Source: an uncultured Gammaproteobacteria bacterium (GTDB lineage Bacteria; Pseudomonadota; Gammaproteobacteria; Ga0077536). From it: DNA of 64,000 nucleotides. Below are positions 6,456 to 42,447 of the stretch, one piece after another. Every line of letters begins with the position of its first letter. The first letter of the stretch is position 1. Where the stretch lies: the NCBI GenBank assembly GCA_903866355.1, contig CAIPNE010000714.1, positions 64,825 to 128,824 of the forward strand, read 5' to 3'. The notes under the pieces are model-generated. The model worked only from the letters and a program-made list of their open reading frames with translations. It was not told where the DNA came from and ran no database searches. The translations under genes were made by a program, and so were the position numbers.

Positions 6456-6456
6456 T

Positions 6457-8632: not shown

Positions 8633-8683
8633 GGCTTTACCTCCTCATATCTTCTAGGAGGTCACCGGGGCGGGCACAGGGTT

Positions 8684-12646: not shown

Positions 12647-12662
12647 GTCAGTTCATTCCTTC

Positions 12663-27124: not shown

Positions 27125-27127
27125 GGG

Positions 27128-28150: not shown

Positions 28151-28187
28151 CTAAGACCCCTCTCTGTATTGCAGGGAGCGGGCAGAT

Positions 28188-28520
28188 CTAGCTGATCGGA
28201 TCGCCGTTCTCGTCCTTGAGGACCGACGCGGAGTCGTAGAAGTCGCGCATGTAATCCTGGTTGCGGCTCGCCAGAGCAGCGACCCGTGCGCCAGCAGCGG
28301 CACCGGCATTGCCAACGTCGATGGTTCCCGCTTCGACGGCCAGAGCCTGGATCACAGCTTCGCCGGTCACGATGCTGGAGGTATCACCATTGATGGTGCA
28401 GGACTGAACCTCGTAGAGAGCGTCGGACACAGACGGCCCGCCGGGGATACCGGCATTCGGCTGCTTGGTCAGATACAGGCCGTTGACAACGGGTCCGTAC
28501 TGCGGATAGGGAGCGGTCAT
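28188..28520 (-). CDS. Small paralogue 3 of a three-gene family
   Basis: 110 aa. It shares the ...SCTI(N/D)G(D/E)(T/E)SS(I/A)VTG... block with the 72-aa paralogue. RBS GAAAGG precedes the ATG. Confidence 0.45.
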   Translation of the reverse strand: MTAPYPQYGPVVNGLYLTKQPNAGIPGGPSVSDALYEVQSCTINGDTSSIVTGEAVIQALAVEAGTIDVGNAGAAAGARVAALASRNQDYMRDFYDSASVLKDENGDPIS

Positions 28521-28535
28521 GGTGATTTACCTTTC

Positions 28536-28703
28536 TTACGGGGTCGGGAGGGTAGGCGTGTCTGCGGCTGCCTCAGCGACCACCATGGCTGCTGGGGGGT
28601 TGGCAAGGGCACCCGTGATGCGCGGCGTGGAGACGCCGAACTGGCGAACCTGATAGGTCGCCTTCGGGTAGGGGTCGCTGCTGCTGAGTGCCCAGTCGCT
28701 CAT
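28536..28703 (-). CDS. Small paralogue 2 (55 aa), not in the ORF track
   Basis: Own translation gives MSDWALSSSDPYPKATYQVRQFGVSTPRITGALANPPAAMVVAEAAADTPTLPTP. AGGAG lies 8 nt upstream of the ATG. It shares the Y(Q)xRQF(P/G) block with the 72-aa gene and fills an otherwise 186-nt gap. Confidence 0.4.
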   Translation of the reverse strand: MSDWALSSSDPYPKATYQVRQFGVSTPRITGALANPPAAMVVAEAAADTPTLPTP

Positions 28704-28706
28704 GGC

Positions 28707-28925
28707 TTAGGCTCCTGTTGCCCCGGCGGCGGGATCGTAGCGGGTAGCGTCACGGGCGGTAACCGCGCTGGACTCTTCGCCGTCGATGGTGCAAGACGGA
28801 GGGGTGGCGAGCGAGTCGGCCACCGTCACGTCGGGGTTGCCGTCCTTGGTGAACGGAAACTGGCGAGTCTGGTACCCCAAGACGAAGGGGTTGTCAGCGC
28901 CGGGGTGGGGTGCGGGGGCGGTCAT
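28707..28925 (-). CDS. Small paralogue 1 (72 aa)
   Basis: MTAPAPHPGADNPFVLGYQTRQFPFTKDG...PSCTIDGEESSAVTA. It is ATGA-coupled to the upstream 200-aa gene. Confidence 0.45.
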   Translation of the reverse strand: MTAPAPHPGADNPFVLGYQTRQFPFTKDGNPDVTVADSLATPPSCTIDGEESSAVTARDATRYDPAAGATGA

Positions 28926-29524
28926 TTTGCTCCTTTTCGGGGTGCGGTCACGGTGGTGGTGGCGAAGGTCCAGGTTTCGTTACCCTGAGAGTCGGTGGTC
29001 AGACTGCCGGGGAACAGTGCCGCCATGTCGGCGTGAAGCGCACACAGAGGGGCGATGCCCTCCTTGAGTTCCCGTGCCGACTGGAACACCCGGCCACGGG
29101 TGACCACGCCCGACTTGGGGTCGGTTTCACCGCACTGGAGGCATGCCTTTTCGACCAGATCCCTGCCGGTGTTCGCCTCTTCAACCTCGCCGCGCAGATT
29201 CGCCATTTGCTCGTCGGAAGCGGCGATGGACTGGCTCATCAGCAGGGTGATGTGATCCTCCATGGCCTCGTCGGTCGAGACGGTGATGCTGCCCTTCATC
29301 CACAGCTTCTGAAGGCCGCGCATTTCCAGAGCGAGCTTGGGCAGGTGGGCGACAGAGTCGGAGGTACCAGCCGGGGAAAGCTCAAAGTCCACGTTCCCCT
29401 CGCCAATGCGCTGGTGAAAGCTCATGTGGTGGGGAGTGTTGTTCTTGATGTACAGCGAACCCTCATGCTTGCGGAGTTCCGGCAGCGTGAGCTTCTTGTC
29501 CTGCTGCTTAGTGCTTGTAGCCAT
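28922..29524 (-). CDS. Hypothetical protein
   Basis: 200-aa ORF. GAGGAAGAGAGATAAGG precedes the ATG. Confidence 0.45.
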   Translation of the reverse strand: MATSTKQQDKKLTLPELRKHEGSLYIKNNTPHHMSFHQRIGEGNVDFELSPAGTSDSVAHLPKLALEMRGLQKLWMKGSITVSTDEAMEDHITLLMSQSIAASDEQMANLRGEVEEANTGRDLVEKACLQCGETDPKSGVVTRGRVFQSARELKEGIAPLCALHADMAALFPGSLTTDSQGNETWTFATTTVTAPRKGAK

Positions 29525-29601: not shown

Positions 29602-29880
29602 TTAGGCTCCGGTGTCGCCACCTGTGCTGCCGGTTGCCCCGGTGTCTCCACCAGTCGATCCGGTGGCACCCGCGCCGCCAGTAGAGCCGGTTGCCCCAGT
29701 GTCTCCACCAGAGGACGCTCCGGTATCCCCTCCGGTGGCTCCGGTGTCTCCACCGCCTGTGGAACCAGTAGCCCCTCCGGTGTCGCCGCCCGTAGCCCCG
29801 ACATCACCCTTAGTTGATTCCGTTGCGCCCGTATCGCCACCCGATCCCGTTGCGCCCTCCGATGAGCCGGTCGGCTCGGG
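29602..29880. repeat. Tandem nucleotide repeat encoding the collagen-like G-D/A/S-T region
   Basis: Repeated ggtgtctccacc / ggtggcaccc / ggttgcccc units of 9 to 27 nt are visible on the plus strand. Confidence 0.5.
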
Positions 29881-30135
29881 TTCAGGCGTAGGCTCAGGTG
29901 CAGCAACGTCGGGCACTGCGTCGGCCAGTACCTGGCGAACCTCTAAGATGACGTTGTTCAGCGCGTTGGCGCGAGCATCATCCTGGGCCTGCTGCTCTTG
30001 GACTTCAGCAGCGGTCACCGCCCCGTCAATGGCTGCCTTTACCTGAGCAGCGATGTCGGGGTGAGCGGCGATGACCTCCATCGCAGCGCCCATCTTGGCA
30101 GTCAGTTCCGCGAAGACCTCATCGAATGTTGCCAT
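29602..30135 (-). CDS. Fibre-stalk-like protein: helical N-terminal half, Pro/Glu linker and a collagen-like Gly-X-Y C-terminal region
   Basis: 177 aa. The C-terminus reads GDTGATGSTGGDTGATGSTGGDTGA... Confidence 0.5.
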   Translation of the reverse strand: MATFDEVFAELTAKMGAAMEVIAAHPDIAAQVKAAIDGAVTAAEVQEQQAQDDARANALNNVILEVRQVLADAVPDVAAPEPTPEPEPTGSSEGATGSGGDTGATESTKGDVGATGGDTGGATGSTGGGDTGATGGDTGASSGGDTGATGSTGGAGATGSTGGDTGATGSTGGDTGA

Positions 30136-30155
30136 TATGTGTTCCCTTCAATCTT

Positions 30156-30893
30156 TTAGATGAGATACCGAATGATGACGATGCCAGAAGCACCACTACC
30201 AGCGCCACCGTCATAGTTACCGCCGCCACCGCCGCCCCAACCCTGACCACCGAAGCCGCGATAACTACCAATACCATTACCCCCGCTTGGGCTGGAAATG
30301 ACTGAAGCGGAAGTAATTACCCCACCGCCCCCACCGCCGCCGCCCCAACTGGCACCACCACTTCCCCCGCTGCCTGCGGAAATAAATGTCCCGATAAGGG
30401 CAGCAGTGTCACTCCAACCACCACCACTACCGGGTGCCCCACCACCAGCACCAGTACCGCCGTTGCCGTAAGAACCGCCGCCGCCGCCGCCGTAACCGCC
30501 GGAACCGCCAGTACCGCCGCCGCTTCCACCACCGCCACCACCGTTGTTGCTGACACCCTGACCGCCGCCGTTGGCGGTTAAGCCAAGAGCCGTAGAGGTA
30601 CCGCCACCGTTGCCGCCAGTACCGCCTGCGCCCACTGTGATCGAATACACGCCACCGGCAAACTGACTGCTGCTGGTGACCAGTCTCCCGCCACCACCGC
30701 CGCCGGAATATCCCGCTGTCGCGCCGCCGCCCCCGCCGCCGACAAGTACAGCCTGCATAGTTACCGATCTACCAACCGTGAAGGTTTGACCAGAAGTGGT
30801 GAAGATGTGGTAGCGGTAGCCACCTGTGTCAACGACGGTGCCGCCGATTGCGATTGGCCCCCCGGCCAAGATAGCGTTGCGTGCGGCGAACAT
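30156..30893 (-). CDS. Glycine-rich-domain protein, paralogous to the C-terminus of the IPT-repeat tail protein
   Basis: 245 aa with YRYHIFTTSGQTFTVGRSVTMQAVLVGGGGGG... poly-Gly ...GIVIIRYLI. Compare YNYTIPTWCTKIDVVMVGGGGAGG...RVWLYAY in 8684..10822. Confidence 0.5.
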   Translation of the reverse strand: MFAARNAILAGGPIAIGGTVVDTGGYRYHIFTTSGQTFTVGRSVTMQAVLVGGGGGGATAGYSGGGGGGRLVTSSSQFAGGVYSITVGAGGTGGNGGGTSTALGLTANGGGQGVSNNGGGGGGSGGGTGGSGGYGGGGGGSYGNGGTGAGGGAPGSGGGWSDTAALIGTFISAGSGGSGGASWGGGGGGGGVITSASVISSPSGGNGIGSYRGFGGQGWGGGGGGNYDGGAGSGASGIVIIRYLI

Positions 30894-31747
30894 TACGGTG
30901 TGTACCCCGCCGACACCGATCCGTACCAGTTGACCCCGTCACTGACGAAGCTGAGAATATCCATCTTCCCAGGAGTGACAGTAATGGTCGGAACACTTGT
31001 CCACTTGACGTTGGTGAAGGTGGCCGATCCGTTTCCAGTGGTCGGGGCTTGTTTGAGCAGCAAAATGAAGCTCTTCCCGGCCCCTACCGCAGGCATAGTG
31101 AAGGTGCAGGCGGTGCTTGCGGTGAGGGTTGCGGTCAGTACGGTTCCGCTGGTCAGAGACAAAGTCGCCGCCGTCGTGACGGTGCCGATGGTGACAACCG
31201 ACTCGGTGTAGTTGGTGATTGTCGGCGCGGTAAGGGTTTTGTTCGACAAGCTCTGAGTGGCAGCAATTGTAGTCACCGTGTCGGAGGCACCGGGGAAGGT
31301 GAACGTCGTCCCGTCCGTACCGGCCAGCGTCAACGTGGTGTTGACGTTTAGCACCTTGCCTGCGGCGAAGTTCGACCCAAAGAAGCTGTCCTCCCAGTGT
31401 TCAGGAAGGGTCGGGTCTGCTACCAGGGCGGTGAACATACATTCGATGCTCGGGCCAAGCACATGGATGACGCCCATGTTGGAGGACAGTGTGGTGATGG
31501 TGCCCGACGAGTTGTTGATCCCAATGATCTGCGTTCCGGCTTCGACTCCGGTCGTCGGCAGCACCAAAGTGTGGTTCGCGCTGCCGGTGAACTCTTGAGT
31601 CCTAGCAGAGGCAGAGGTTAGCGTCAACGTACCGCCCGATGTCGCCGTGGAGGCGAAGCTGGATAGCCGGTTGACCTGGGACACGACGGTATTAAAGTCG
31701 CTGGCCCCTAGTGAGTCACCAGTGTTGTAGTTATCCTTTAGCGGCAT
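30893..31747 (-). CDS. Fibre-like protein with a conserved N-terminal MPLKxNY..GD..(D/E)(F/L)N motif
   Basis: 284 aa, Thr/Ser/Gly-rich and beta-rich. Its N-terminus is paralogous to that of 36043..36321. Confidence 0.45.
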   Translation of the reverse strand: MPLKDNYNTGDSLGASDFNTVVSQVNRLSSFASTATSGGTLTLTSASARTQEFTGSANHTLVLPTTGVEAGTQIIGINNSSGTITTLSSNMGVIHVLGPSIECMFTALVADPTLPEHWEDSFFGSNFAAGKVLNVNTTLTLAGTDGTTFTFPGASDTVTTIAATQSLSNKTLTAPTITNYTESVVTIGTVTTAATLSLTSGTVLTATLTASTACTFTMPAVGAGKSFILLLKQAPTTGNGSATFTNVKWTSVPTITVTPGKMDILSFVSDGVNWYGSVSAGYTP

Positions 31748-31800
31748 TGGTGTTTCCTCTCTACATCACTTAAAGTCGCTGGTGGCGGGGAGTACAGGTA

Positions 31801-34500
31801 TCAGGCGAAGGGGACGGCGGGAGGGGTGAAGTCGGCGGTGTACCGGGCGGCTTGAGTGATCCGAAGGTTTTCAATTTGCCCCTGGAAATCCTGGGCTACC
31901 CCTGCCGACAACCGACCGATATGCAGCGGGGTCGTGGGGGTGATCGCGGTGGCGTTGCTGACGGTCGCCCCTTGGAGGACTCCACCGACATACATCCGCA
32001 GGGTTCCGCTGGCTCGGGAGACAGCGACATGCACCCAGTCTGTTCCTGTGTATGCGCGTGTCATCAGGGTGGTGTCGCCGTTGCCGAACTCAAAATTGTT
32101 GCCGTTGCGCCGCAGCCACCACCCCATTGACGGCCCACCGTAGGTGCTGGCGATGACCAGACCTGCGGCCCATTTGACCCACGCCTCGACGGTGAAGTCA
32201 CCGGGGAAGCTCATGTGCCCCGCCCGGTATGGGATGGTCAGGTAATCTCCGGTGCCGTCGAGGGTGACACTACTGGTGGAGAACTTAGTCACCGCCGTCG
32301 AGGTCTTCGCATCGCCGTAGTTGGTCAGGTTGGTCATCCCAGTCGAGTCGTAGATTCCGGCGTTGTCGAAATCCACCAGCAGGCTGGTGCCGGAAATGGC
32401 GGCGACTGGGGCGGTCGGCGGTGTGAACGCGGCGGTGTAGACGGCGGTGCTGGTTATCCGAATGTTGGCGGCATAACCGATGAAATAACCTCCTGCGCCG
32501 TTGGACTCGCAACCAACATAAAACGGGCTAGTCGCCCTGGAGGTCAAATCATTGTTCGTTGTCGTGGAGCCGACCAGCACGCCGTTGAGGTAGAGGCGGG
32601 TGGTGCCGCTGGCGCGTGACAGTGCGACATGGTTCCAGGTGTTGAGCGTCATGGCTGTAGATGCGGCGATGAGGGCGGTGTCATTGTTCCGGTATGCCAG
32701 CACGCCGGAAGTGTCCACGTTGAGTGTCACGTCATTGGCGGGGCCGGTGCCGAAAGACCAGAGCCTCTGGAAGTAGGTGGTGCGGATCGTGAAGTCGCTA
32801 AAGTTCCACCACCCCTCGACGGTGAAGTCTCCCGTCCCGATTCCGGTCAGGTACCCAGCCGGAACAGTCAGATAATCCCCTGTCCCGTCGAAGTACCCGC
32901 TGCCACCGTAGGGGTAGGTGACCCGCTTGAACGGGGCAGCCTCGTTCGCACTGAGGGTCACGTTGCCATAGACCCCGGTGCCGTTCTTGGTGATAGTGAA
33001 GTTGTTAGTGCTGGCATCGGTGATGGTGGACGCACTCTGGCACGTCAGCAGGCTGGTGTTGGCGATAGCAGTGAGTGGAGCGGTGGGCACCGTCAAAGTA
33101 GTCTGGGTCGGGTTGTAGACCGCCGTGCCCTTCACCAGACGCAGATTGGAAATGTACCCGGCGTAGAAGGAGCCACCACCGTCATCGGCCACATAGGAGG
33201 TTCCCTGGACGAAAGTGGTGCTGTTGGTCACCGTGGCTACCCTGATGCCGTTGAAGAACAGCGACAGAGTGGTCCCGCTTCGGACTACGGCTATATGAGT
33301 CCAAACCTTCACCGTGGGGAGTGCCGCCTGCAACAGGTCGGCAACGTAGGCGGTTCGCACGACGAAGTTGCTGCCGTTTTTGCCGATCCACAATCCGGTG
33401 TTCACCAAAGTGACAAAGATTCCGCTCGTGGTGTTTGTCCAGTTATTGGGATTAAGCCAGCACTCAAACGTGAAGTTGCCAGAGGCGGGATTCAGTGCGG
33501 CACTACTGGGGATCGACAGGTTGGTTGGGACACCGTAGTTCAACCAATCGGTGGGGTCACCGTTGAAATACACGCTGCCGGTGCTGGTGGCCCCCGCCGT
33601 GATGCGGGGTGGGGCGAACGGGGAAAACCGGGTGACGGCGGTGTCACCCGATTTGGTGATCGTGAAGTTGTTAGTCGAGTTGTCCTTGAAGCGGTTGTCC
33701 TGCAAGGTGAGCAGGCTGGTGTTGGCGATGGCAGTGAGCGGAGCCGTAGGCACCGTGTAGGACGTTCCCTCGTAGACAGCCGTTCCCTTGACGAGCCGCA
33801 CATTGGAGAGGTACCCGAAGGTGTATTCGTTCGTACCACTGTTGCCGATATACGGGGAAGACGCTGATGCCTGGGCAGTGGTGAAGGCTGCGGTGGCCGT
33901 CCGTGTGCCGTTCAGGTACAGCGACAGCGTGTTGCCGGATCGGACAACGGCGCAATGGTTCCAGGTGTTGTTGACGATGGTGCCACCGGCAAGAAGCTCA
34001 ACACTGTTACCGGCCTTCAGGACATTGCTCTGCACATACAGGGCCATGCCAAGTCCGTTGCCCCCAGCACCGATTCTGGTGTCAATGAGAACGTCAAGGT
34101 TGCTGCCCGTCTTGTAGAACCAGCACTCCATCGTCCAGTCGCCCGAACCGAACCCGAACGCGGCATTGCTTGCCAGCGAGAGAAAGTCGCCGCTGCCGTC
34201 GAAGTACCCCGACCAGTACCCGCTTGGGAAGTACGGGGAGAAGGTTCCCTGCGTCACGTCCCCGGTGCGGGTCACCGCGAAGTTGTTGGTGCTGCCGTCG
34301 CGGAAGACACTGTTGGTCGCACCGGGAATACCGATGGTCCTCATTGACAGGACGTTGCTGGCCGGAATGGAGTCGGGGGCGACATCAACCGGCCAGGTGC
34401 CTGCCCGAACGGCTAGCTGGTTCTCTTGGAGGTTCCAGATGCCCGGTGCCGACGTGGTGGTCGGTGTGATGAGCTTGCCCATGACGTTGCCGGTACTCAT
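31801..34500 (-). CDS. Protein with about four tandem LamG_3-like (concanavalin-A-like lectin/glucanase) domains
   Basis: 899 aa. Each domain repeats FDGSGDYL...W...GYxSNxRxVKGTAVY signatures, for example GYLSNVRLVKGTAVY, GYISNLRLVKGTAVY and ANIRITSTAVY. Confidence 0.6.
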   Translation of the reverse strand: MSTGNVMGKLITPTTTSAPGIWNLQENQLAVRAGTWPVDVAPDSIPASNVLSMRTIGIPGATNSVFRDGSTNNFAVTRTGDVTQGTFSPYFPSGYWSGYFDGSGDFLSLASNAAFGFGSGDWTMECWFYKTGSNLDVLIDTRIGAGGNGLGMALYVQSNVLKAGNSVELLAGGTIVNNTWNHCAVVRSGNTLSLYLNGTRTATAAFTTAQASASSPYIGNSGTNEYTFGYLSNVRLVKGTAVYEGTSYTVPTAPLTAIANTSLLTLQDNRFKDNSTNNFTITKSGDTAVTRFSPFAPPRITAGATSTGSVYFNGDPTDWLNYGVPTNLSIPSSAALNPASGNFTFECWLNPNNWTNTTSGIFVTLVNTGLWIGKNGSNFVVRTAYVADLLQAALPTVKVWTHIAVVRSGTTLSLFFNGIRVATVTNSTTFVQGTSYVADDGGGSFYAGYISNLRLVKGTAVYNPTQTTLTVPTAPLTAIANTSLLTCQSASTITDASTNNFTITKNGTGVYGNVTLSANEAAPFKRVTYPYGGSGYFDGTGDYLTVPAGYLTGIGTGDFTVEGWWNFSDFTIRTTYFQRLWSFGTGPANDVTLNVDTSGVLAYRNNDTALIAASTAMTLNTWNHVALSRASGTTRLYLNGVLVGSTTTNNDLTSRATSPFYVGCESNGAGGYFIGYAANIRITSTAVYTAAFTPPTAPVAAISGTSLLVDFDNAGIYDSTGMTNLTNYGDAKTSTAVTKFSTSSVTLDGTGDYLTIPYRAGHMSFPGDFTVEAWVKWAAGLVIASTYGGPSMGWWLRRNGNNFEFGNGDTTLMTRAYTGTDWVHVAVSRASGTLRMYVGGVLQGATVSNATAITPTTPLHIGRLSAGVAQDFQGQIENLRITQAARYTADFTPPAVPFA

Positions 34501-34501
34501 G

Positions 34502-34987
34502 TCAGCCCCATACCTGAAACTCCAGCGTCATAACGTAACCGCTGGCGTTGTACAACCTGATGTACCGCCAGTTGTTATTGACGTTGATCGACACAAGACC
34601 GTTGGTTGAGCCGGTAGACGTGTAGGTCGGGGTGGTAGTGATGGTCGTCCAGTTGGTGTTGTCGGTGGAACCCTGAACGGTTCTTCCTTCGGCGTAGGAG
34701 GTTCCCCATCCACCGGGGAGGTTGCTCAGGTAGTCGTACCCGATCACGATGCGGTTAACGAACTTGGTTGACCCCAGGTCGGCCTTGATGAAGGCGTTGG
34801 CTTCGGAGTTCGTGCCCGTTTGGTAGCCGTTGGTCGCCACCGACCCGTTGGCGTTATTATCGTTCATCCCGGCATAGGTGGCCGCGACATTGCTGCCGTA
34901 GACAGAACTCTGAGTATAGGTGATCCCAGTGTATTGGCTCGCAGGGATCGCCTTCTCGTAGGCCGCTGTCATGCTCCACACACTCAT
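34502..34987 (-). CDS. Discoidin (F5/8 type C)-like carbohydrate-binding domain protein
   Basis: The track ORF spans 34502..35059. I prefer the ATG at 34985-34987, which makes an ATGA overlap with the upstream stop, giving 161 aa. The C-terminus reads ...NNNWRYIRLYNASGYVMTLEFQVWG. Confidence 0.45.
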   Translation of the reverse strand: MSVWSMTAAYEKAIPASQYTGITYTQSSVYGSNVAATYAGMNDNNANGSVATNGYQTGTNSEANAFIKADLGSTKFVNRIVIGYDYLSNLPGGWGTSYAEGRTVQGSTDNTNWTTITTTPTYTSTGSTNGLVSINVNNNWRYIRLYNASGYVMTLEFQVWG

Positions 34988-35670
34988 GTGAGTCCCAGCT
35001 TGGACTTGTAGGAGTTGTAGACAGAGGTCATCTCCGTGGTGGAGAGAATCCTGTTCCATACCGCGATGAAGGACACCTCACAGTTGGAGTTCTCTCCGTA
35101 AGAAATATTGACCCCCAACCCGTTGAATCCGGTTGATCCTCCGGTCGAGTTGGTCACCACGGCGGTGTTGTTGACGTAGAACGATCTTTGATTGGCCGCG
35201 TAGTTTTCGGTTCCGGCGTAGATTCTCCACGCCGTGTCAGCGGAGCCGCTGTAGTGAATCCAACCGTTGGCGTAATACGCCTGCGTATAGCCACCGTAGT
35301 GACCGAACAGCCAGTTGGTGCCAGAAGATGCGATGACCCGACCATTGGTGCCACCCGTGTAGCGCGAACCGCAGATGATGGTCAAGTTGTTATACAAATA
35401 GTTCAGCGGAGCGGTTGCGCTCTGCGTGGTCGTGAACCGCAGCACGCCGCCGTTGGTGGACTGGAAGGTGGGGCTTCCGGCCAACGTCATGTTGTTGCCG
35501 CTCCCGCTCAGGTCAGTCCAAGTAGTTCCGGTGCCAGGGTAGGAGCGGGTGTCTCCGGCATCCACATGCAGGGTCAAGCCGGAAGGCAAGACCGGGGGTA
35601 TAGGAATGGCCGTGCCGAAGGTTGCCTTGTAGCCGACGTAGCCACCGTTGTCGAATACGGTCTTGGTCAT
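34984..35670 (-). CDS. LamG-like lectin-fold protein
   Basis: 228 aa with ...TWTDLSGSGNNMTLAGSP... and ...WNRILSTTEMTSVYNSY... Confidence 0.5.
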   Translation of the reverse strand: MTKTVFDNGGYVGYKATFGTAIPIPPVLPSGLTLHVDAGDTRSYPGTGTTWTDLSGSGNNMTLAGSPTFQSTNGGVLRFTTTQSATAPLNYLYNNLTIICGSRYTGGTNGRVIASSGTNWLFGHYGGYTQAYYANGWIHYSGSADTAWRIYAGTENYAANQRSFYVNNTAVVTNSTGGSTGFNGLGVNISYGENSNCEVSFIAVWNRILSTTEMTSVYNSYKSKLGLT

Positions 35671-35673
35671 CGT

Positions 35674-36033
35674 CTAGCTGATTTCCTCATACGAGCAGAC
35701 GGCTTCCAAACTGGTATTCGCGCTGGCCGTCACCCGCAAGCTGTCATTTTCCTCCAGGTAGATGCTGGTGTCCTTGGAGATAACCACCAGGGTTGCAGCC
35801 ACCGGGACGGTGATGGTGAAGGCGAGCCGGAAGGCGGTGGTCTGGTTCTTGTAGACATCCACGGTGATCGTCGCCGCTGCCGCCCCGATGTTAGCGATGG
35901 ACAGCGAGTTGATCTTGAGGATTTTGCCGCTGGAGGCGGCGTTGGTCACCAGGGCGGCGGCAGAGGTCGTGACGGCGGCACCGGCCACCTTCCCCAAAAT
36001 GGTGGTGACGTTGACAATGTTGGGGTTAGCCAT
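35674..36033 (-). CDS. Small beta-rich hypothetical protein
   Basis: 119-aa ORF, Ala/Thr/Val-rich. Confidence 0.4.
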   Translation of the reverse strand: MANPNIVNVTTILGKVAGAAVTTSAAALVTNAASSGKILKINSLSIANIGAAAATITVDVYKNQTTAFRLAFTITVPVAATLVVISKDTSIYLEENDSLRVTASANTSLEAVCSYEEIS

Positions 36034-36042
36034 GGGATTTCC

Positions 36043-36321
36043 TTACCCGAAAACGATTGCCATGGCAATCGCCTTGCCGGTGCTGAATGTCGGCGGGGTG
36101 GCCCAGGTGCCGTCACCGCGCAGGTAGGTGGTGGAGCCGGGAGATCCGCTGGATGTGCTGATTCCCGCCACCGGCAGGCCGGTGCAGTTGGTCAGGGTTC
36201 CGGAGGTAGGAGTTCCCAGCGCCGCGCCCGAAACCACCGCAGCGTTAATCGCCGTGTTGGCGCTGTTCAGTTCGGTGGCGGTCACCACGTCGCCATTGAC
36301 ATAGTTAGTCTTGAGCGGCAT
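36043..36321 (-). CDS. Small fibre-associated protein sharing the MPLKxNY..GD N-terminal motif
   Basis: 92 aa: MPLKTNYVNGDVVTATELNSANTAINAAV... ending ...YLRGDGTWATPPTF... Confidence 0.4.
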   Translation of the reverse strand: MPLKTNYVNGDVVTATELNSANTAINAAVVSGAALGTPTSGTLTNCTGLPVAGISTSSGSPGSTTYLRGDGTWATPPTFSTGKAIAMAIVFG

Positions 36322-36345
36322 TTTGGCTCCTTACTCTCTCTCTCT

Positions 36346-39240
36346 TTATAGGTAGAACGGGAAGAAGTTACTACTGAGCAGTTCTGATACGTCAGAAGTG
36401 ACAGCGGCAGGAATCTCCAGCAACGCTCCGGTGACAGCGTCGAAGTTGAGCATGTTAACGGTCAGGACAGTCACGGCCTGATCGGTGTACAGGAACCGGC
36501 CCATGTTGACATTGGGGATGTCTCCGCTGAAGGCTTGTAGAGCGGAGTTGGAGAACAGATCCGACTTCAGCCGCTCTTCGGTGGGTGCCAGCAGCGCCAG
36601 CAGACCATCCAGGCTCATCCCCTTCGTAAAGTCAATCAGGCTAGATGGGGTGACGGTGAGGTTGGAGTTCAGTAGAGCATCGAAGTTAACGGCACCGCCG
36701 GGACCATTACTGACCGGCATGTTGGCGTCGAGGAACTGGTTGTACAGAGGGTCGGTGTCGGTTGTGACAATGCCCAGTACGTCGGAATCCAGAAGTTGAC
36801 CCCGGCTGGGTTCCGGAGAGGTCACTTCGGCGGTCACCGAAAGGTCAGCGTCGATGAACTGATTTCGGGTGACTTCGGCGTTCGATGATGACGTAACGAA
36901 GAATTGCGCTTCAGTTTCGGCATCGTTGTAGATAAGGACGAAATGACCGGCAGTAACATCCAGGTGAGAGTTGACTCTGGCATTCCGAAGGAAGTCGATG
37001 TAGGTCGATGCGGTGACCGGAAGATCCGCGTCGAGCAGTGCGTCGAAGTCCACCGCGCCGGTCGTCTCGTCGGTGATTCCTAATAGAGCGTCAGCGTTGT
37101 GGTTGCGGATAATTTCGCCGTACCGGGAAGAGGTTACTGCCAGGTCGGTATCTACCCGTGCCCCAAACAGAACGGCAGAATCCACACCGGCTTCGGTGGA
37201 GAGATTGTCAGATTCTGAGAACTGGTTGCGGATGAATGTGGTAGATAGAGAGGCTGTGACGGGGAGGTCACCGTCCAGCGGCTGTTGTTGGGAGAATCCG
37301 GCGGTGGCTTCGGCGGTGGAAGTGTGATCGGCGTCCAGCGGCTGGCCGTAAGTTGTGTCAGCGCTAAGTTCGGCGGTCACCAAAAGTTCAACGAATCCGA
37401 TGCGCCCCTTCACCGGATCAGATTGTGCTGTGGCCGTGACGGCTAGTTCGTCGGAATCAATATCGACCAAAACGGATCGGATCGCAATGAAGGTGGCTTC
37501 TACCGGCAGGTCAGCATCAACACCGACATTGCGGAGGGATTCGGAGTCCGGAATCGTGACGGTGATTCCAACATCTTCAGATTCAACAAAGACATTGCGG
37601 GTCGCTTCGGCAGTGATGCCAACGGCGACCTCCCCGCCGAATATATCGCTGACCATATCGGCAGCTTCGACGGCGACAAAATCAGCGATGCCTGCTAGGT
37701 CAGCGGTAAGGCTCTGAGCATCCCAGTTTACAGCCGACTCGACGGTTGCCGTCGCCACCAAGACGGAGTCCACAATGGCGTTACGGTCGGCTGCTGGGGA
37801 GTCTGATACGACAACGGTTATCTCTTCGGCGTCGGCGCGGGCGACAATGGATGCTTCCGCACTGGGCTGTGCGGTAATGATCTGGTCGTAAGAGAAGAAG
37901 TTCGCATTGCGAGTGCTGTCAGATTCCGTCGTGACGGTGACAGCCGTATCGCTATCGGAATACAGGGAGGTCGAAGCATCAGCCGGATTCGTCACTGTGA
38001 CGTTGATGGTGTCGGAGTAGACGTTTCTGCCTTGCACTACGTCACCAGAAGGACTGGCTGTCCCCGCGAGGTCAGTATCTTCGATTGCGTTACGGGTACC
38101 TGTTGTATCCCGACTGACTGTCACGTCCTGGCTGGAGTCTAGGAGTGCAGAGAAGTCCACGGCATCGGTGGCGGTTGCTGTCCCGTCTAGTAGAGAATCT
38201 GCGAACTGGCCGCGAATCGTATCGTTAGTGACTTGACTGTTTGCCGAAGTGACAGTGGTCGTCAGTGACGTATCGCCAAACACGCCCCTGGTGGTGTCTA
38301 CCAGTACGGATGAGAATATGACGGGGAAGACGTAGGGGAACGCAGAGTTGTAGCTGACTGTGGTGAGCAATGACGAGTCAACGGTCTGTCCCCGGCCTCC
38401 AGTTGCCTCTAGGGATACCGTCCCTGACAGGCTGGCTGCGATGGTAGTCGAGACTGTTGCGGCGGCAGACAGTCCTGCGACAATCTCCCCTGATGACTGA
38501 GCGTAGGCAGTCCAGTTGACTTGTGCTGTGGGTGTCGCAGTAACTGCTGTATCTGTATCTCCACCGTAGGTCTTTGCCAGGACGTTGCTGGTCTGGAAGG
38601 TGAACGGGAAGGTGTACGGAAATTGATTGCCAAGGCCAGCAGTGACCGTCAGATCAGCGGCAAGTCCCTGAGCATCCCAGTTGACTACCGAATCGGCGGT
38701 TGCCGTCGCGGCCACCAGGACGGAGTCCACATTGGCGTTGCGGTCGGCAGCCGGGGAGCCTAGTGCCGTCCCTGACAGGCTGGCTGCGATGGTAGTCGAG
38801 ACTGTTGCGTTGGCAGAAAGTCCTGCAAAGATTTGTCCCGATGACTGAGCGTAAGCGTCCCAGTTGACTTGGCCGGTGGGTGTTGCGGTGACTGCTGTGT
38901 CTGTATCGCCGCCGTAGGTCTTGGCAAGCACATTGCTGGTTTGGAAGGTAAATGGGAAGGTATACGGGAACTGGTTGCCAAGCCCAGCCGTGACCGTCAG
39001 CGAAGCGTCGGCTGTCAGGACGTATCCGACAAGGGTTTCGGTGGTCGTGCCCACCACAAAGGGGACGGTGTAAGGAATAGTATTATTGGTGGATACGACA
39101 ACATCCAGAGATGCGTCGGCCACTTCTTCTTTGGCGAAGATTACGACAACATCCAGAGAAGCGTCGGCAAAAAGCCTTCTTGTCGTATCCCTTAATACTT
39201 GGCTAGAACCAACCGGATATGACCTACCTAGCCGTGCCAC
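36346..39240 (-). CDS. Large repetitive fibre-like protein (964 aa) with internal tandem domain duplication
   Basis: Short motifs (DADLxVT, NAIVDSVLVA...) recur through the protein. An exact 118-aa duplication is present (...DLTVTAGLGNQFPYTFPFTFQTSNVLAKTYGGDTDTAVTATPT...). Confidence 0.55.
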   Translation of the reverse strand: MARLGRSYPVGSSQVLRDTTRRLFADASLDVVVIFAKEEVADASLDVVVSTNNTIPYTVPFVVGTTTETLVGYVLTADASLTVTAGLGNQFPYTFPFTFQTSNVLAKTYGGDTDTAVTATPTGQVNWDAYAQSSGQIFAGLSANATVSTTIAASLSGTALGSPAADRNANVDSVLVAATATADSVVNWDAQGLAADLTVTAGLGNQFPYTFPFTFQTSNVLAKTYGGDTDTAVTATPTAQVNWTAYAQSSGEIVAGLSAAATVSTTIAASLSGTVSLEATGGRGQTVDSSLLTTVSYNSAFPYVFPVIFSSVLVDTTRGVFGDTSLTTTVTSANSQVTNDTIRGQFADSLLDGTATATDAVDFSALLDSSQDVTVSRDTTGTRNAIEDTDLAGTASPSGDVVQGRNVYSDTINVTVTNPADASTSLYSDSDTAVTVTTESDSTRNANFFSYDQIITAQPSAEASIVARADAEEITVVVSDSPAADRNAIVDSVLVATATVESAVNWDAQSLTADLAGIADFVAVEAADMVSDIFGGEVAVGITAEATRNVFVESEDVGITVTIPDSESLRNVGVDADLPVEATFIAIRSVLVDIDSDELAVTATAQSDPVKGRIGFVELLVTAELSADTTYGQPLDADHTSTAEATAGFSQQQPLDGDLPVTASLSTTFIRNQFSESDNLSTEAGVDSAVLFGARVDTDLAVTSSRYGEIIRNHNADALLGITDETTGAVDFDALLDADLPVTASTYIDFLRNARVNSHLDVTAGHFVLIYNDAETEAQFFVTSSSNAEVTRNQFIDADLSVTAEVTSPEPSRGQLLDSDVLGIVTTDTDPLYNQFLDANMPVSNGPGGAVNFDALLNSNLTVTPSSLIDFTKGMSLDGLLALLAPTEERLKSDLFSNSALQAFSGDIPNVNMGRFLYTDQAVTVLTVNMLNFDAVTGALLEIPAAVTSDVSELLSSNFFPFYL
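38414..39120. repeat. Direct tandem duplication of two units of about 354 bp, roughly 85-90% identical, inside the 964-aa gene
   Basis: gtccctgacaggctggctgcgatggtagtcgagactgttgc... recurs at 38414 and 38768. The right boundary is approximate. Confidence 0.6.
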
Positions 39241-39246
39241 TCAGCA

Positions 39247-39753
39247 TCACTCTTCCCAGATGACGTAGCACCACATATTGACGGCAGCGGCAGACGTAGG
39301 GGTGGCTCGGATGCGAAGCGCCATGCTGGCGTTGACTTCCGGCTCGCGTCCCAGCGGGAACTGCTGCTTAAAGTAAAGGGAAGTGTCGTAGTTGTACGCG
39401 AACAGCCGGGAAGCGGTAATGATGCCTTCGTCGGTGGAGTTGAAGCCGGTGGCCCTGACTGCGCTCACCACAGCACTGGAAGCTGGCCCGGTGGCATCGT
39501 TGTAGCGGGTGACAGCCGTGATCTGGGTGATTTCGGCGAACACTCCGGTTTCGACAAGCTCCACCCTTACCGGGGAAGCCGGGGCGGCATCGAAGCCGTA
39601 GCCCCACTCCACGATGCGGAACTTCTGGGCACCCGCCTTGACTTGAAGGATCGTCTTGACTGTGCCCGACGTAGCGGAGGTCGCAGTAGCGGCGGGGGGT
39701 CCGCTCAGTCCCGACGTATTGGCGTTCCAGGCGATGAACAGCGGTGCGGCCAT
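39247..39753 (-). CDS. Hypothetical structural protein
   Basis: The track ORF spans 39247..39864. I prefer the internal ATG at 39751-39753, which follows AAGGTAAAGGAAA and lies after the upstream stop at 39765. 168 aa. Confidence 0.45.
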   Translation of the reverse strand: MAAPLFIAWNANTSGLSGPPAATATSATSGTVKTILQVKAGAQKFRIVEWGYGFDAAPASPVRVELVETGVFAEITQITAVTRYNDATGPASSAVVSAVRATGFNSTDEGIITASRLFAYNYDTSLYFKQQFPLGREPEVNASMALRIRATPTSAAAVNMWCYVIWEE

Positions 39754-39764
39754 GAGGGTTTCCT

Positions 39765-40445
39765 TTACCTTATTGAGGCGTGATTGACGGCGGCAGATAA
39801 CTGGGAAGTTTTTACGCCGGGGGTCGGACTGAACGATAAGGGGATGCCAATAGCTCCACCCCACTGAGTATTGTTAGTTGTGGTGACCGTACTGGAAGTT
39901 ACGCCGTCCGAAACGGCATAGAAGCCGCCAGCCGAATTATTTCCGCTGGTGTTCGTCCAGAAAGCTAACGTGGCTCCGGTGTAGCTATTAAGCGGTGAGG
40001 CGTAGGTTTCTCCGACGCTGAACACCACCATGCCGTTAGCTGGCCCCTGCGCCGTGACCGTGTGGGGGGAGCCTTGCTGTAAAGCCGTGACTGGGGTGCC
40101 GATTTTTCCAGCCCCCTTGAATGACATGGAGTTGGCTGCCCAGGTGTAAGACTTGCCATTCGGGTTTAGGTTGACCGTCTTGGTTCCTGAGCCGCCAATT
40201 TCCAAGTAGAACGAGGCGCACCGAAAAGTTGATGCCAAAAACTTCATGGCGACACCATCGAAGGTTAGCACTACATCATTCGGCCCCATTGCGTCATTGC
40301 CGTTCGTCAGAGAGACATTTAGGCCGGGGCAAATGGTGACGATAACGAGGTTGTGGTCGGCGGCGACAGTGTGATTCCATGACCCCGCCACGTTCGCGGA
40401 GGACTGATAAAATCCGGTCCCGGCAGAGCCGAAAGTAACGGGCAT
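39765..40445 (-). CDS. Hypothetical structural protein
   Basis: 226-aa ORF, Gly/Thr/Ser/Asn-rich. Confidence 0.45.
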   Translation of the reverse strand: MPVTFGSAGTGFYQSSANVAGSWNHTVAADHNLVIVTICPGLNVSLTNGNDAMGPNDVVLTFDGVAMKFLASTFRCASFYLEIGGSGTKTVNLNPNGKSYTWAANSMSFKGAGKIGTPVTALQQGSPHTVTAQGPANGMVVFSVGETYASPLNSYTGATLAFWTNTSGNNSAGGFYAVSDGVTSSTVTTTNNTQWGGAIGIPLSFSPTPGVKTSQLSAAVNHASIR

Positions 40446-40482
40446 GGGTCACCTTTCAGTTCGCCGGATGACGTACTGAGGG

Positions 40483-40866
40483 CTACGCCGCCAGTGGAGC
40501 CAGTGACAGACCGCAGGTGTTGAGCGTCAGGGTGTCACCGTTGGCGACCGTCTTGCTCACCGAAAGCTGCGCCGACCAGAGGAAGGAGCCGCCGGTCGAA
40601 GCCGACCAGACCGAAATGTAGGCTACGGTTTCGGAGGTCGTCATGTTCCATGCGGTCGGAGTAGCCGACAGAGCGATAGCACCCGACGAGGCGGCAGCGA
40701 AGGTCGCCTGCTGACGCACCGTTACGGCGCTCTGATTGCTCGTTCCGCTGGCACCTGGGTCACCAGTGTGCAAGCCGATGTAGGTCGCAGAGTTAGAGAA
40801 CGAAGTGCCACGAATGCCATTCAGCATTGCATTGGCGAGGTTGGTGGTGGAGAGGCCCACAGTCAT
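40483..40866 (-). CDS. Small fibre/minor-tail-like protein with an ...YIGLHTGDPGASGTSN... motif
   Basis: 127 aa. GAAAGAAAGG precedes the ATG. From memory, the LHTGDPG block resembles N-termini of actinophage minor tail proteins, but this is unverified. Confidence 0.45.
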   Translation of the reverse strand: MTVGLSTTNLANAMLNGIRGTSFSNSATYIGLHTGDPGASGTSNQSAVTVRQQATFAAASSGAIALSATPTAWNMTTSETVAYISVWSASTGGSFLWSAQLSVSKTVANGDTLTLNTCGLSLAPLAA

Positions 40867-41017
40867 CGGTTATACCTTTCTTTCGGTGGAGGCGGTAGCC
40901 TCCGTATCGGGGTTGGCCGGGTCCGTGGCCTCATCCATCCAGAGATTTTGCGGCGCTCTGGTCACCGATGCCGATGCTTCCGTCACGATTTCACCCAAGA
41001 TGTTCATGTCATTTCTT

Positions 41018-41203
41018 TCAGGCTTGGAGGGCAGTGGATAACAGGAACCAGGCCCCGGCGTGGCTTGACCACCGGAAGCCCAGGAAGGCGGTCTTGTGTG
41101 GCTCCAGCGTGATGGAGGGGTGAGCGCCCAGGCAGGGGATCACGTCGGACGGTGAGAACACCAGAACCCGATCAGGCCCTGCTTTGACCTCAAACACTTC
41201 CAT
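41018..41203 (-). CDS. Small hypothetical protein (low confidence)
   Basis: The track ORF spans 41018..41419 with a GTG start. Only the 3' third, from the ATG at 41201-41203 (MEVFEVKAGPDRV...), shows the local GC3 bias. No RBS was found. Confidence 0.25.
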   Translation of the reverse strand: MEVFEVKAGPDRVLVFSPSDVIPCLGAHPSITLEPHKTAFLGFRWSSHAGAWFLLSTALQA

Positions 41204-41478
41204 CTGATGCTCGTCCGGATCTTCGGGCAAGCTCAAGTGCAGATCGGACTGGGCGACGATGTGATTGCTGTATGAAGGATAGGCAGTACGCGCCCAGCCC
41301 AAAGTAAGCTGGTCGTGTTCACCGACTGGTGTCGGCCCTAAGTCCTTGCGTGTCACCAAGACCTCCCTCACCACTTCTGAAGGGTGAGAGGGCTGGTTAC
41401 AGGGCAGAAAGGCCCCCACCCTGCGAACAGGATGAGGGCCGGTCCTACCGAAGGATCGTGTGCGGCGAGTGCCCCTCG

Positions 41479-41685
41479 TTAGGACGTTTCGATGATGGGG
41501 ATATGGCTGGCGGTCTTTTCGTCAATGTCGATGACCACCGGGTTGCTGATCTTCAGGTCAGATAGACCGTTGATGAACTCCTGCATGTCGTGGATGCAGC
41601 TAGTTTGCACAATGATCTTCTGTATCTCACCGTCGTCATTAGACAGCGTGACGAGATAAGACCTCCCCACAGCTTCTGCGCACAT
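41479..41685 (-). CDS. Small Ile-rich hypothetical protein in an AT-richer island (moron-like)
   Basis: 68 aa (MCAEAVGRSYLVTLSNDDGEIQKIIVQTSCIHDMQEFINGL...). No SD precedes the ATG. TAGCCT lies 6 nt upstream of it, consistent with a leaderless TANNNT promoter. Palindromes lie immediately upstream. Confidence 0.45.
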   Translation of the reverse strand: MCAEAVGRSYLVTLSNDDGEIQKIIVQTSCIHDMQEFINGLSDLKISNPVVIDIDEKTASHIPIIETS

Positions 41686-41715: not shown

Positions 41716-41748
41716 CCCTATAGGGCATTAAATCCCTAGACCGTAGGG
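41716..41748. promoter_or_regulatory. Palindromic element CCCTATAGGG (perfect 10-bp palindrome) plus CCCTAgaccgTAGGG, flanking the stop of the 232-aa gene and upstream of the 68-aa gene
   Basis: Seen in the sequence: 41716-41725 and 41734-41748, with an AT-rich spacer between them. Confidence 0.5.
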
Positions 41749-42431
41749 CCACTATCCCCAGTCTCGACCGGGGTGACCACGGCGTCCGGAGGAAGCTCTC
41801 CAGCCACGGCCAGAGTCGCACCTTCAGGTACGGCTACGGGCGATACGTCGGGAACCTCCACCACCGTAGTGGCCGGATGCAAGTCGCCTGCGTGTACCGG
41901 ATCGGCTGTCGGATCAACCGGGACCGGGGTGACCGCCTCAGCCGGTGTTTCGACCGTCTCAGCGCCCGCAGGAACCTCTGCCGGGACAGACGGTACCTCT
42001 GCGGTGATGCTGGCGTCAATCAGCCCTCCATCGGCCACCTGGCCTGCCGGGGTGCTGGCCTCGACGGCGACAGCCGGAACCTCAACGGGAGCCACCGGCT
42101 CCAGCGCGTCAGCCTGCGCCTTGACGGCATCAGCAGCCACGACGAGTTCATCGACAGCCTGGATGAGTTCCGGATCGGTTGCCGTACCGGCAGCGGTCAG
42201 GCTAGCCACCTGCTGCTGAAGGCTGGTCACCTGGCCGGTCAGTGAGGTCAGGTTGCTCTTCAGGTTCCCGACGTTGATGTTGTTGTCCGCGACAGCCTCG
42301 TTGAGCTTGGCGACAGCGGCTTCGATCTGGTCAGCGAGTGACATGATTTCTCCGATTTTATTGAGGATGAAGAAGGTCACAAACAGCGTGAACCCCTGAA
42401 AAAGCAAGGCGGCTGCGGTGAACCAGATCAT
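41736..42431 (-). CDS. Membrane-anchored coiled-coil protein with a Pro/Val/Ala-rich C-terminal half
   Basis: An N-terminal hydrophobic helix (IWFTAAALLFQGFTLFVTFFIL) is followed by heptad-like segments and then PVAPVEVPAVAVEAS... AAGGAG lies 6 nt before the second ATG. Confidence 0.5.
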   Translation of the reverse strand: MIWFTAAALLFQGFTLFVTFFILNKIGEIMSLADQIEAAVAKLNEAVADNNINVGNLKSNLTSLTGQVTSLQQQVASLTAAGTATDPELIQAVDELVVAADAVKAQADALEPVAPVEVPAVAVEASTPAGQVADGGLIDASITAEVPSVPAEVPAGAETVETPAEAVTPVPVDPTADPVHAGDLHPATTVVEVPDVSPVAVPEGATLAVAGELPPDAVVTPVETGDSGPTV

Positions 42432-42447
42432 CACGGACTCCTTGGGA

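Follow-up and report, generated by a model that had tools for sequence, protein, structure and literature searches.

A candidate bead-on-rope fiber cassette between the capsid and neck genes of an uncultivated myovirus

What structure is encoded by the ~12 kb of genes that separate the capsid gene from the neck genes in an uncultivated phage, and where on the virion would that structure sit? The question arises in a 64,000-nt stretch of metagenomic DNA (contig CAIPNE010000714.1, positions 64,825 to 128,824; hereafter, the window), part of the ~150-kb genome of a myovirus that is represented on dozens of metagenome contigs, where all of its proteins are labeled 'hypothetical'. An original prediction, made from the letters of the window, read positions 29602-40866 as a lectin and fiber module forming a second adhesin system, such as head or neck fibers or Hoc-like decoration. 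We consider it fairly probable that 29602-41356 is an optional, rapidly exchanged cassette that would give the virion a second fiber system of the bead-on-rope type. The gene content, family memberships, repeat period, linkage of the bead and rope genes, and optional character of the cassette, on which this reading draws, are direct observations.

The bead protein and its repeat-rich partner

The organizing principle of the cassette, which the original prediction missed, is a bead protein paired with a rope of 20-residue repeats. The 127-aa bead, previously described as one of three Gly/Thr-rich proteins, matches Pfam family PF23140 ('Podophage GP4 fiber I protein gp80') at 6.1e-24 (85.2 bits against a cutoff of 27) and phrog_240 at 1.4e-31. 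That shared description also failed for the other two proteins: one belongs to phrog_553, labeled 'minor tail protein' (3e-13), and the other has no family. Among Protein Data Bank (PDB) sequences, the bead retrieves a chain of GP4 fiber I (8jou_a, 3e-11) and, weakly, the Bas63 connector 9mt4_I (E 0.22). The family is large, with 1333 representative clusters at E<=1e-3 and 710 phage records, mostly from mycobacteriophages. Many relatives are ~250 aa long and carry two tandem bead domains (e.g., P0108, P0110, and P0114), making them in effect covalent dimers, which fits beads working as dimers.

Bead-on-rope fibers have been solved on three virions so far (GP4, Bas63, and Sf14, 2023-2025), each time at the neck. 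Papers on these structures, or citing them, describe five gp80 dimers strung on the GP4 'rope', a separate protein that is interlocked with the ring formed around the head-to-tail adaptor by a 93-aa Ig-like adaptor (PMC12609058, PMC11445570). The deposited unit, PDB 8jou, contains 10 bead chains and three chains of the 93-aa adaptor, in agreement with this picture. In the myophage Bas63, homologous whisker dimers wrap, 'like beads on a string', around a rope-like extension that belongs to an Ig-like collar protein, and a strand of this rope fills in the incomplete β-sandwich of each whisker (PMC12609058, PMC11445570).

The rope candidate in the window is the 964-aa protein, correctly called repetitive in the original prediction. 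Using BLOSUM autocorrelation compared with shuffled sequences as the measure of periodicity, we found peaks at lags of 20 and 40 residues (z 5.6-7.1), and repeat listing together with a hidden Markov model (HMM) yielded 33 units. The protein has no match in the phage collection, Pfam, or PHROGs, and a PDB search returned chance matches only. Six homologs were found among 5.8 billion protein clusters. Three of their contigs were read: in one, the rope gene adjoins a called PF23140 gene, in another a PF23140 gene lies two genes upstream within the cassette, and in the third a Gly_rich_2 gene is nearby. The start codon of the window gene is uncertain, and an apparent strain variation in rope size (964 or 925 aa) proved to be an artefact of start-codon choice on identical DNA. 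Within the gene, a 236-nt direct duplication (37.5-38.6 kb, aa 79-156 and 195-272; 85% identity) suggests that the rope grows by unit duplication.

The 20-residue signature recurs next to other bead genes. A lag-20 period with a lag-40 harmonic (z 5.6-10.9) characterizes the window protein, its homologs at L093, L088, and L089 (L numbers denote the loci compared), Tourach gp24 (C-terminal part), Devonte gp33 (N-terminal part), and YL2_62, whose gene follows that of the bead in the GP4-like Ralstonia phage YL2; the period is absent from five control proteins. At five additional mycobacteriophage loci, picked solely for their bead gene, the gene just upstream of the bead alone has the lag-20 period (z 7.2-10.3), against z <=2.7 for the 32 other proteins. 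Altogether, a 20-residue-repeat protein adjoins or lies near the bead gene at 13 of 13 loci. The ~10-12 repeats of YL2_62 compare with the 10 bead subunits published for each GP4 rope. Phrappuccino gp57 and I3 gp110/gp111, also considered as ropes, were rejected as they show no lag-20 period.

Gene order and domain fusions tie further components to this pair. At L088, from activated sludge, a bead is followed by a protein starting VPLPTNY, a 1598-aa rope, and a protein starting MLKDNW. The order at L089 is rope, a protein starting MTLKTNW, a Gly_rich_2 protein, and a homolog of gp123 of mycobacteriophage I3, while L093 has bead, a 195-aa protein, a 1450-aa rope with three embedded globular domains, and the gp123 homolog. 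The L093 cassette is compact and comes from a distant relative; immediately upstream of its bead gene, a 257-aa open reading frame (ORF; 41-814, plus strand) appears glycosyltransferase-like by eye. Tourach gp24 combines an N-domain, a Gly-rich domain, and rope repeats; ahead of it come gp23, the bead, and gp22, a homolog of the GP4 adaptor (8jou_D, 1e-9). The L093 rope opens with an N-terminal globular domain, the first of its three, that is similar to the Tourach gp24 N-domain (4e-15) and, weakly, to the 226-aa protein of the window (0.044); the L088 rope contains a segment similar to the 226-aa protein. Tourach gp24, Devonte gp33, and Kingsolomon gp22 each carry Gly_rich_2 and the rope in one polypeptide. 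The window holds as separate genes what these other phages fuse, namely the phrog_553 domain (226 aa), the Gly_rich_2 domain (245 aa, PF21722), and the rope repeats (964 aa), and, with the 127-aa bead, all four elements of the Tourach/Devonte type are present.

Based on homology and gene linkage, the core of the proposed fiber would be beads on a rope. The extended 964-aa protein, with its ~30-45 repeats of 20 residues, would be the rope, each repeat supplying one short β-strand to complete the open β-sandwich of one 127-aa bead subunit. With one strand per repeat per bead, bead dimers would stack end to end along the rope, as in GP4 fiber I and the Bas63 whisker. Globular binding modules encoded by separate genes (the 226-aa phrog_553, 245-aa Gly_rich_2, four-LamG, discoidin, 284-aa, and 92-aa proteins) would form tips or branches touching the host envelope. 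Several of these tips would dock through two kinds of shared N-terminal anchor peptide of ~30-50 residues, such that tips could be swapped with the stalk unchanged. The fiber would hang from the neck, where Ig-like domains on a stopper-like protein would act as the Ig-like collar of GP4 and Bas63.

Among known systems, GP4 fiber I (PDB 8jou: gp80 beads, a separate rope, and the 93-aa Ig-like fiber-tail adaptor) shares with the window a clearly homologous bead and a rope that is a polypeptide of its own. As in the window, a 20-residue repeat is encoded beside the bead in GP4-like YL2, by the adjoining gene. However, GP4 is a podophage, the window rope is approximately three times longer than YL2_62 (964 vs 325 aa, ~30-45 vs ~10-12 repeats) with no detectable sequence similarity to it, and the window has no sequence homolog of the 93-aa adaptor. 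Nor were stand-alone lectin, Gly-rich, and anchor-type proteins such as those of the cassette noted beside the YL2 bead gene. The Felixounavirus collar-whisker complex of Bas63 and Sf14 (PDB 9mt4) also belongs to myoviruses, is encoded near head and neck genes, and has whisker dimers threaded like beads on a rope at the neck, with Ig-like collar domains on a neck component. The similarity between bead and whisker is marginal in sequence, and lectin tips are not described for Bas63. Furthermore, the rope in Bas63 is part of the collar protein, whose short N-terminal extension accommodates two dimers, whereas the window rope would be a separate giant protein.

The siphoviral mycobacteriophages (Tourach gp22-gp24, Devonte gp33-gp34) resemble the window in the bead (62% identity), the phrog_553 N-domain, Gly_rich_2, and the 20-residue rope repeats, and their bead and rope genes are always adjacent. 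In these phages, the parts are fused into one 385-760-aa protein encoded after the tape-measure gene, whereas the window has separate genes, a much longer rope, and a capsid-neck position; Tourach also retains a 91-aa adaptor of the GP4 type, which the window lacks by homology. T4 fibritin (wac) whiskers and Hoc, non-essential accessories of the head or neck thought to aid adsorption, invite a comparison in general terms as accessory structures. They share no homology with the cassette, in which Pfam and PHROG scans found no coiled-coil fibritin-like or Hoc-like Ig protein.

An optional cassette at a fixed site

Relatives were gathered from IMG/VR and metagenomes by utilizing the capsid gene and a gp127 homolog as queries; the gp123 homolog as a query found no relatives in IMG/VR. 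In cassette-free relatives (L030, L029, L076/L095, L075, L097, and Phrappuccino), the 68-aa gene that flanks the cassette on its capsid side is followed by the I3 gp123 homolog within ~0.3 kb, or at L097 after ~1 kb with three small ORFs intervening, and no rope, bead, or lectin gene lies between the two. Since the flanking genes abut in some relatives, 29602-41356 is an optional cassette at a fixed site. A transcription unit of its own was considered for the cassette and rejected, as promoter and terminator motifs are not enriched.

The occupants of this site vary. The L083/L093 cassette consists of bead, 195-aa protein, and rope only, while L090, a close relative, keeps the window gene order minus the 899-aa LamG protein and with other substitutions. 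In some other relatives, TIG-repeat proteins, lone LamG proteins, or 284-like proteins occupy the site; for instance, L040 has 177-like, 284-like, and TIG-repeat proteins, and L045 has a LamG protein between two 284-like proteins. The bead and rope are the recurrent core, whereas the LamG, discoidin, and glycine-rich proteins come and go as accessories, and the lectin proteins that the original prediction stressed are the dispensable part. Cultured relatives have ordinary fiber-like proteins at or next to the site (I3 gp120 and gp121, Phrappuccino gp63), none with a 20-residue period, so the site is a fiber hot spot across the clade and not in cassette-bearing phages alone.

The gene structure described earlier was largely borne out. 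Each of the 12 ORFs was recovered on the minus strand within 29602-40866, in agreement with gene calls on the public source contig (149.6 kb, metagenomic), except that two starts differ there: the discoidin protein has 161 aa rather than 185, and a protein given as 205 aa has 168. The predicted extent also fell ~0.5 kb short, as the cassette continues through a 45-aa ORF and a 112-aa gene. Fold assignments fared unevenly. Pfam recovered the four LamG-like domains of the 899-aa protein (Laminin_G_3 x4, 9.8e-60, above the gathering score), the discoidin-like domain (F5_F8_type_C, 34.3 bits against a cutoff of 28.2), and the glycine-rich domain of the 245-aa protein (Gly_rich_2, 27.4 bits against 24.3), and the window has exactly two MPLKxNY starts, at 31747 and 36321.

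Two other assignments did not withstand scrutiny. The 177-aa protein, called collagen-like, has no Pfam Collagen match and is not a canonical collagen; its tail repeats a 10-residue unit (GDTGATGSTG), with a longest unbroken G-X-Y run of 7 triplets. Its N-terminal 74 aa are 66% identical in L091, and its phrog_8745 match is to low complexity only. The 228-aa protein, taken for another LamG protein, matches neither Pfam nor an HMM of the four LamG domains from its 899-aa neighbor, and its PHROG matches fall on a different part of a multi-domain profile; a 29% homolog occurs in L090. With the collagen-like, second LamG, and Gly/Thr-rich calls failing, the claim that all of these proteins are carbohydrate-binding or fiber folds was overstated.

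Two N-terminal motifs connect proteins of otherwise differing architecture. Anchor motif 1, M-x-L-K-x-N-(Y/W)..G(D/E)..(A/T).(D/E)(L/F)N, begins at least 10 proteins with differing C-terminal domains. The first ~26 residues of the 92-aa protein match the 284-aa protein (1e-3) and also the N-termini of L088, L089, L090, L096, and L098 proteins with unrelated C-terminal domains. The 284-aa protein has no Pfam or PHROG match; homologs occur in L040 (68%), L045, L090 (79%), and L091, and a 152-aa protein of L096 keeps its anchor and C-terminal 125 aa (72%) without the middle part. Anchor motif 2, PTTS..G(I/V)W.L.(E/Q)..G.WP, is found in the 899-aa LamG protein (as PTTS..GIWNLQE..GTWP), in the L090 homolog of the discoidin protein (81% identity to the latter; motif match 1.5e-8), and in two adjacent proteins of phage DSL-LC04. 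In phage tailspike and other receptor-binding systems, a short N-terminus that dissimilar proteins have in common usually marks them as interchangeable tips on a shared dock.

DSL-LC04 (L099), an unrelated 61-kb phage, also encodes the closest phage relative of the 899-aa protein (35% identity over 99% of the query), which follows that phage's adaptor gene among lectin and fiber genes. Its two anchor-bearing proteins (3347-5032 and 6287-10384), which share the N-terminus GVWTL..Q..G.WP with the window LamG protein, lie just after the adaptor gene, among lectin and chaperone-domain fiber genes.

The remaining cassette proteins are less readily placed. The 168-aa protein has no Pfam or PHROG match; its gene directly precedes the rope gene in the window, as do those of its homologs in L090 (74% identity) and L096 (75%), and L009 has another homolog (62%). 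The 119-aa protein has an 81% identical homolog in the same position in L090. The 112-aa gene is confined to relatives with cassette genes, lying beside the bead gene in L007, L012, L083, and L090 and occurring in L009, where no bead or rope was detected. Its AlphaFold 2 (AF2) model has a predicted local distance difference test (pLDDT) score of 86.8. Foldseek returned 69 matches to this model in BFVD at E<=1e-3, headed by 'Minor tail protein, Mycobacterium phage Charlie' (1e-7), and weak PDB matches only, among them the Pa223 capsid spike (9e-3, template modeling (TM) score 0.40) and the N-terminus of CBA120 TSP4. A GP4-type Ig adaptor was rejected as an identity for this protein: it has no sequence match to the 93-aa adaptor, and its Foldseek PDB matches exclude 8jou.

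Where the fiber would attach

Because of the gene order in the window, the earlier placement of these genes between the neck and the capsid, apart from the baseplate fibers, is correct. The capsid gene lies on one side, the stopper-like neck and sheath genes on the other, and the baseplate and tail fibers form a cluster of their own. A second, separate fiber system, as originally predicted, is supported by the optional nature of the cassette, by the baseplate cluster having its own fibers, and by a bead homologous to a solved virion fiber (PDB 8jou), while the emphasis on lectins and on Hoc-like decoration was misplaced.

A candidate collar for the rope is the stopper-like neck protein, a 356-aa product with two C-terminal Ig-like domains. 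Its AF2 model matches, in Foldseek PDB searches, the neck of phage 812 (8qkh_A, 9e-4, the top match), 8q01_S, the stopper 8qgr, and the Douge connector 8zdl_M; the homolog in Rhodococcus phage E3 is annotated 'structural protein'. Homologs (P0024-P0066) come in sizes of ~200, 285, and 356 aa, corresponding to 0, 1, and 2 C-terminal Ig-like domains. One or two such domains are present in six of six cassette-bearing relatives compared with one of six without a cassette: I3, L030, L076/L095, L097, and L009/L092 lack them, and Phrappuccino is the exception. Given that the solved homologs sit at the neck, that the genes lie between those for the capsid and the neck, and that the Ig-like stopper co-occurs with the cassette, a neck location is plausible. 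Taken alone, attachment at the neck is close to an even call on this genomic evidence. Sequence searches found no solved structures for the neck and cement proteins of this lineage, and neither the literature examined on I3, Douge, and Claus/Corndog/Mysterious nor the published mycobacteriophage structures consulted give a bead or rope location.

Several observations weigh against the proposed fiber. The phage is uncultivated and the fiber is predicted here from genes, among which those for the 168-, 119-, 228-, and 177-aa proteins were given no role. BLASTP and phmmer found no significant similarity between the 964-aa protein and YL2_62, an HMM of the window's 20-residue repeat found nothing outside the window protein, and no PDB chain corresponds to YL2_62; equating it with the published GP4 rope is therefore our own reading. 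Because the ropes share no significant sequence similarity and YL2_62 is absent from PDB sequences, we infer the rope identity of these proteins from period, position, and arithmetic rather than from demonstrated homology. With regard to the neck, the counts relating Ig-like domains to the cassette are not independent because the 12 genomes are related, and Phrappuccino has the domains without the cassette. The window has no sequence homolog of the GP4 93-aa adaptor, nor does the 112-aa protein match that adaptor in fold. Lastly, in siphoviral mycobacteriophages the genes for the adaptor, bead, and rope close the tail gene block, where they follow the tape-measure gene and are surrounded by 'minor tail proteins'.

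This last point leads to the main rival, in which the bead-on-rope fibers are real but sit at the tail end, as side fibers of the baseplate or distal tail, with their genes merely lying in the head-proximal part of the operon. The tape-measure and minor-tail genes precede those for the bead and rope in Tourach, Devonte, BigPhil, Kingsolomon, Megabear, Enceladus, and an M. abscessus prophage, where the neighboring products are labeled minor tail proteins. A fiber of the baseplate cluster (8684-10822, minus strand), which has six TIG/IPT domains, also terminates in the Gly_rich_2 tip domain (4.4e-17) that the cassette encodes as the stand-alone 245-aa protein. Moreover, gene position does not set virion position; the T4 wac gene adjoins baseplate and short-fiber genes. 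Nevertheless, the solved bead homologs of GP4, Bas63, and Sf14 are all at the neck, the cassette adjoins neck genes with the baseplate cluster and its own fibers 13 kb further on, and the Ig-like domains that co-vary with the cassette are on a neck protein. The published cryogenic electron microscopy (cryo-EM) of the baseplate of Mysterious, a phage that may or may not carry a bead gene, resolved other accessory proteins and reports no rope, and no additional components appear in its table. On balance, we regard tail-end attachment as somewhat unlikely.

A more deflationary possibility is that the cassette encodes no single system and is a dumping ground of unrelated fiber and lectin genes that assemble independently, some possibly non-structural, with only the bead and rope paired. 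The content is indeed highly mosaic among relatives (L040, L045, and L090 differ, and L090 has no 899-aa protein), the I3 site holds the ordinary fiber-like gp120 and gp121 and no rope, and two differing anchor motifs would imply at least two docking sites. Yet anchor-type proteins and Gly_rich_2 directly follow the rope even in the small, unrelated contexts of L088 and L089, and Tourach, Devonte, and L093 have these very domains joined covalently to their ropes. The cassette genes are also tightly packed on one strand, where promoter and terminator motifs are not enriched. We therefore consider this possibility doubtful, slightly more so than tail-end attachment.

Capsid-surface decoration or shell-bound head fibers of the Hoc-like or phi29-like kind are very unlikely: although the bead family is labeled 'head protein' in PHROG and RefSeq, the cassette starts a short way past the capsid gene, and the 112-aa model bears a weak resemblance to the Pa223 'capsid spike', we found no experiment behind the label, the Rosebush decoration protein was identified as gp17 and not as the bead homolog, the better fold matches of the 112-aa protein are tail-fiber and minor-tail proteins, the cryo-EM capsid of the relative Myrna (cluster C2) shows no accessory protein besides cement, whose gene precedes that of the capsid protein and corresponds to 43647-44174 in the window, and no Ig-like or Hoc-like Pfam domain occurs in the cassette proteins scanned (10 of the 12 genes at 29602-40866, with PF23140 only in the other two and the 112-aa gene outside the scan).

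Neighboring genes and implications

The phage is distantly related to cluster C mycobacteriophages (I3, Bxz1, and Myrna), Phrappuccino, and Rhodococcus phage E3. Its capsid protein is 81% identical to I3 gp105, gene order is common to both phages, and the capsid gene is the only part of the window with a nucleotide-level match in the phage collection. G+C content of the window is ~59%, and nearly all genes in 5106-64000 are on the minus strand (Table 1). No tRNA or tmRNA genes occur in positions 1-64000, whereas in I3 a tRNA cluster immediately precedes the portal region.

Table 1. Coordinates of the cassette and of neighboring features in the window.
Feature	Position	Strand	Remarks
Portal	53311-55713	-
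1318-aa giant protein with prohead-protease-like segment	44206-48162	-	upstream of cement and capsid genes
Cement protein	43647-44174	-	PF23968
Major capsid protein	42630-43631	-	I3 gp105 homolog, 81% identity
232-aa gene	41736-42434	-	directly after capsid gene
68-aa gene	41479-41685	-	capsid-side flank of cassette
Fiber cassette, ~12 kb	29602-41356	-
112-aa protein, first cassette gene	41018-41356	-	small β-sandwich as in phage minor-tail, tail-fiber, and collagen-repeat proteins
45-aa ORF	40870-41007	-	within cassette
Bead protein, 127 aa	40483-40866	-	PF23140, GP4 fiber-I gp80 / Bas63 whisker family
226-aa globular domain protein	39765-40445	-	phrog_553 'minor tail protein' 3e-13; similar domain fused to rope elsewhere
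168-aa protein, travels with rope gene	39247-39753	-	directly upstream of rope
Rope candidate, 964 aa	36346-39240	-	~30-45 repeats of 20 residues, core D-x-(D/S)-L-x-V-T-A
92-aa protein with MPLKTNY-type N-terminal anchor	36043-36321	-
119-aa protein	35674-36033	-	weak phrog_1276, 6.5e-4
228-aa protein	34984-35670	-	phrog_24074 2e-25, phrog_8510 3.9e-5
161-aa discoidin (F5/8 type C) protein	34502-34987	-	PF00754 2.9e-8, PF22633 3.5e-8, both above cutoffs
899-aa four-LamG (concanavalin-like) protein	31801-34500	-	PF13385 x4, 9.8e-60, 201.5 bits vs 27.6 cutoff
284-aa protein, MPLKDNY N-terminal anchor and β-rich C-terminal domain	30893-31747	-
245-aa stand-alone glycine-rich domain protein	30156-30893	-	PF21722 Gly_rich_2 4e-6, above cutoff
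177-aa protein, last cassette gene	29602-30135	-	helical N-terminal domain and Gly/Thr-rich 10-residue-repeat tail
Block common to I3 gp123-gp131	23805-29524	-
Stopper-like neck protein, 356 aa, two C-terminal Ig-like domains	25068-26138	-	candidate collar for rope; AF2 pLDDT 77
Sheath	22150-23727	-
Tube	21664-22134	-	homolog of I3 gp133 (gene after sheath gene)
Tape measure	17775-20120	-
Baseplate and tail fibers	5106-16189	-	including Baseplate_J, TIG + Gly_rich_2, NlpC/P60

Some neighbors of the cassette deserve comment. Upstream of the cement and capsid genes, the 1318-aa protein is accompanied by a giant 1485-aa protein (48166-52623, minus strand) with a LysM / transglycosylase-like segment, and both may be internal or ejection proteins. 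The 232-aa protein has an N-terminal transmembrane-like helix, a coiled-coil stretch, and a Pro/Val/Ala/Glu-rich tail, with conservation in distant relatives limited to its C-terminal ~60 residues. Among the neck genes, the I3 gp125 homolog (27128-28150, minus strand) is kept in every relative examined and combines HxH / HDHSG motifs typical of phage fibers with a β-rich C-terminal domain; it may be a conserved neck fiber of the whole clade.

Together, these findings indicate that the cassette is most likely an unusually long, split form of the recently discovered bead-on-rope fiber with exchangeable tips. With 1333 representative bead clusters and 710 phage records set against three solved virions, the design appears to be widespread, and its rope partner can be recognized by the strict 20-residue period in the gene beside the bead gene. 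This signature and its constant pairing with the bead across 13 loci constitute a small general result that can be tested in cultured mycobacteriophages. In particular, many mycobacteriophage 'minor tail proteins' gain a concrete structural hypothesis; several carriers are cultured, and mycobacteriophages are candidates for therapy. The cassette itself offers a natural modular design for host binding, in which stalk, adaptor peptides, and lectin tips are separate, swappable genes at one hot spot.

A bolder version of this proposal, possible but held only tentatively, is a very long neck fiber of ~100 nm, with 15-20 bead dimers per 964-aa rope and exchangeable lectin tips inserted by means of two short N-terminal anchors, hung from the Ig-like domains of the stopper. 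The rope and bead would then also be the unrecognized structure of the glycine-rich 'minor tail proteins' in >600 sequenced mycobacteriophages. If true, host range across a widespread clade of soil actinophages would be switched mainly by the logic of anchors and tips.

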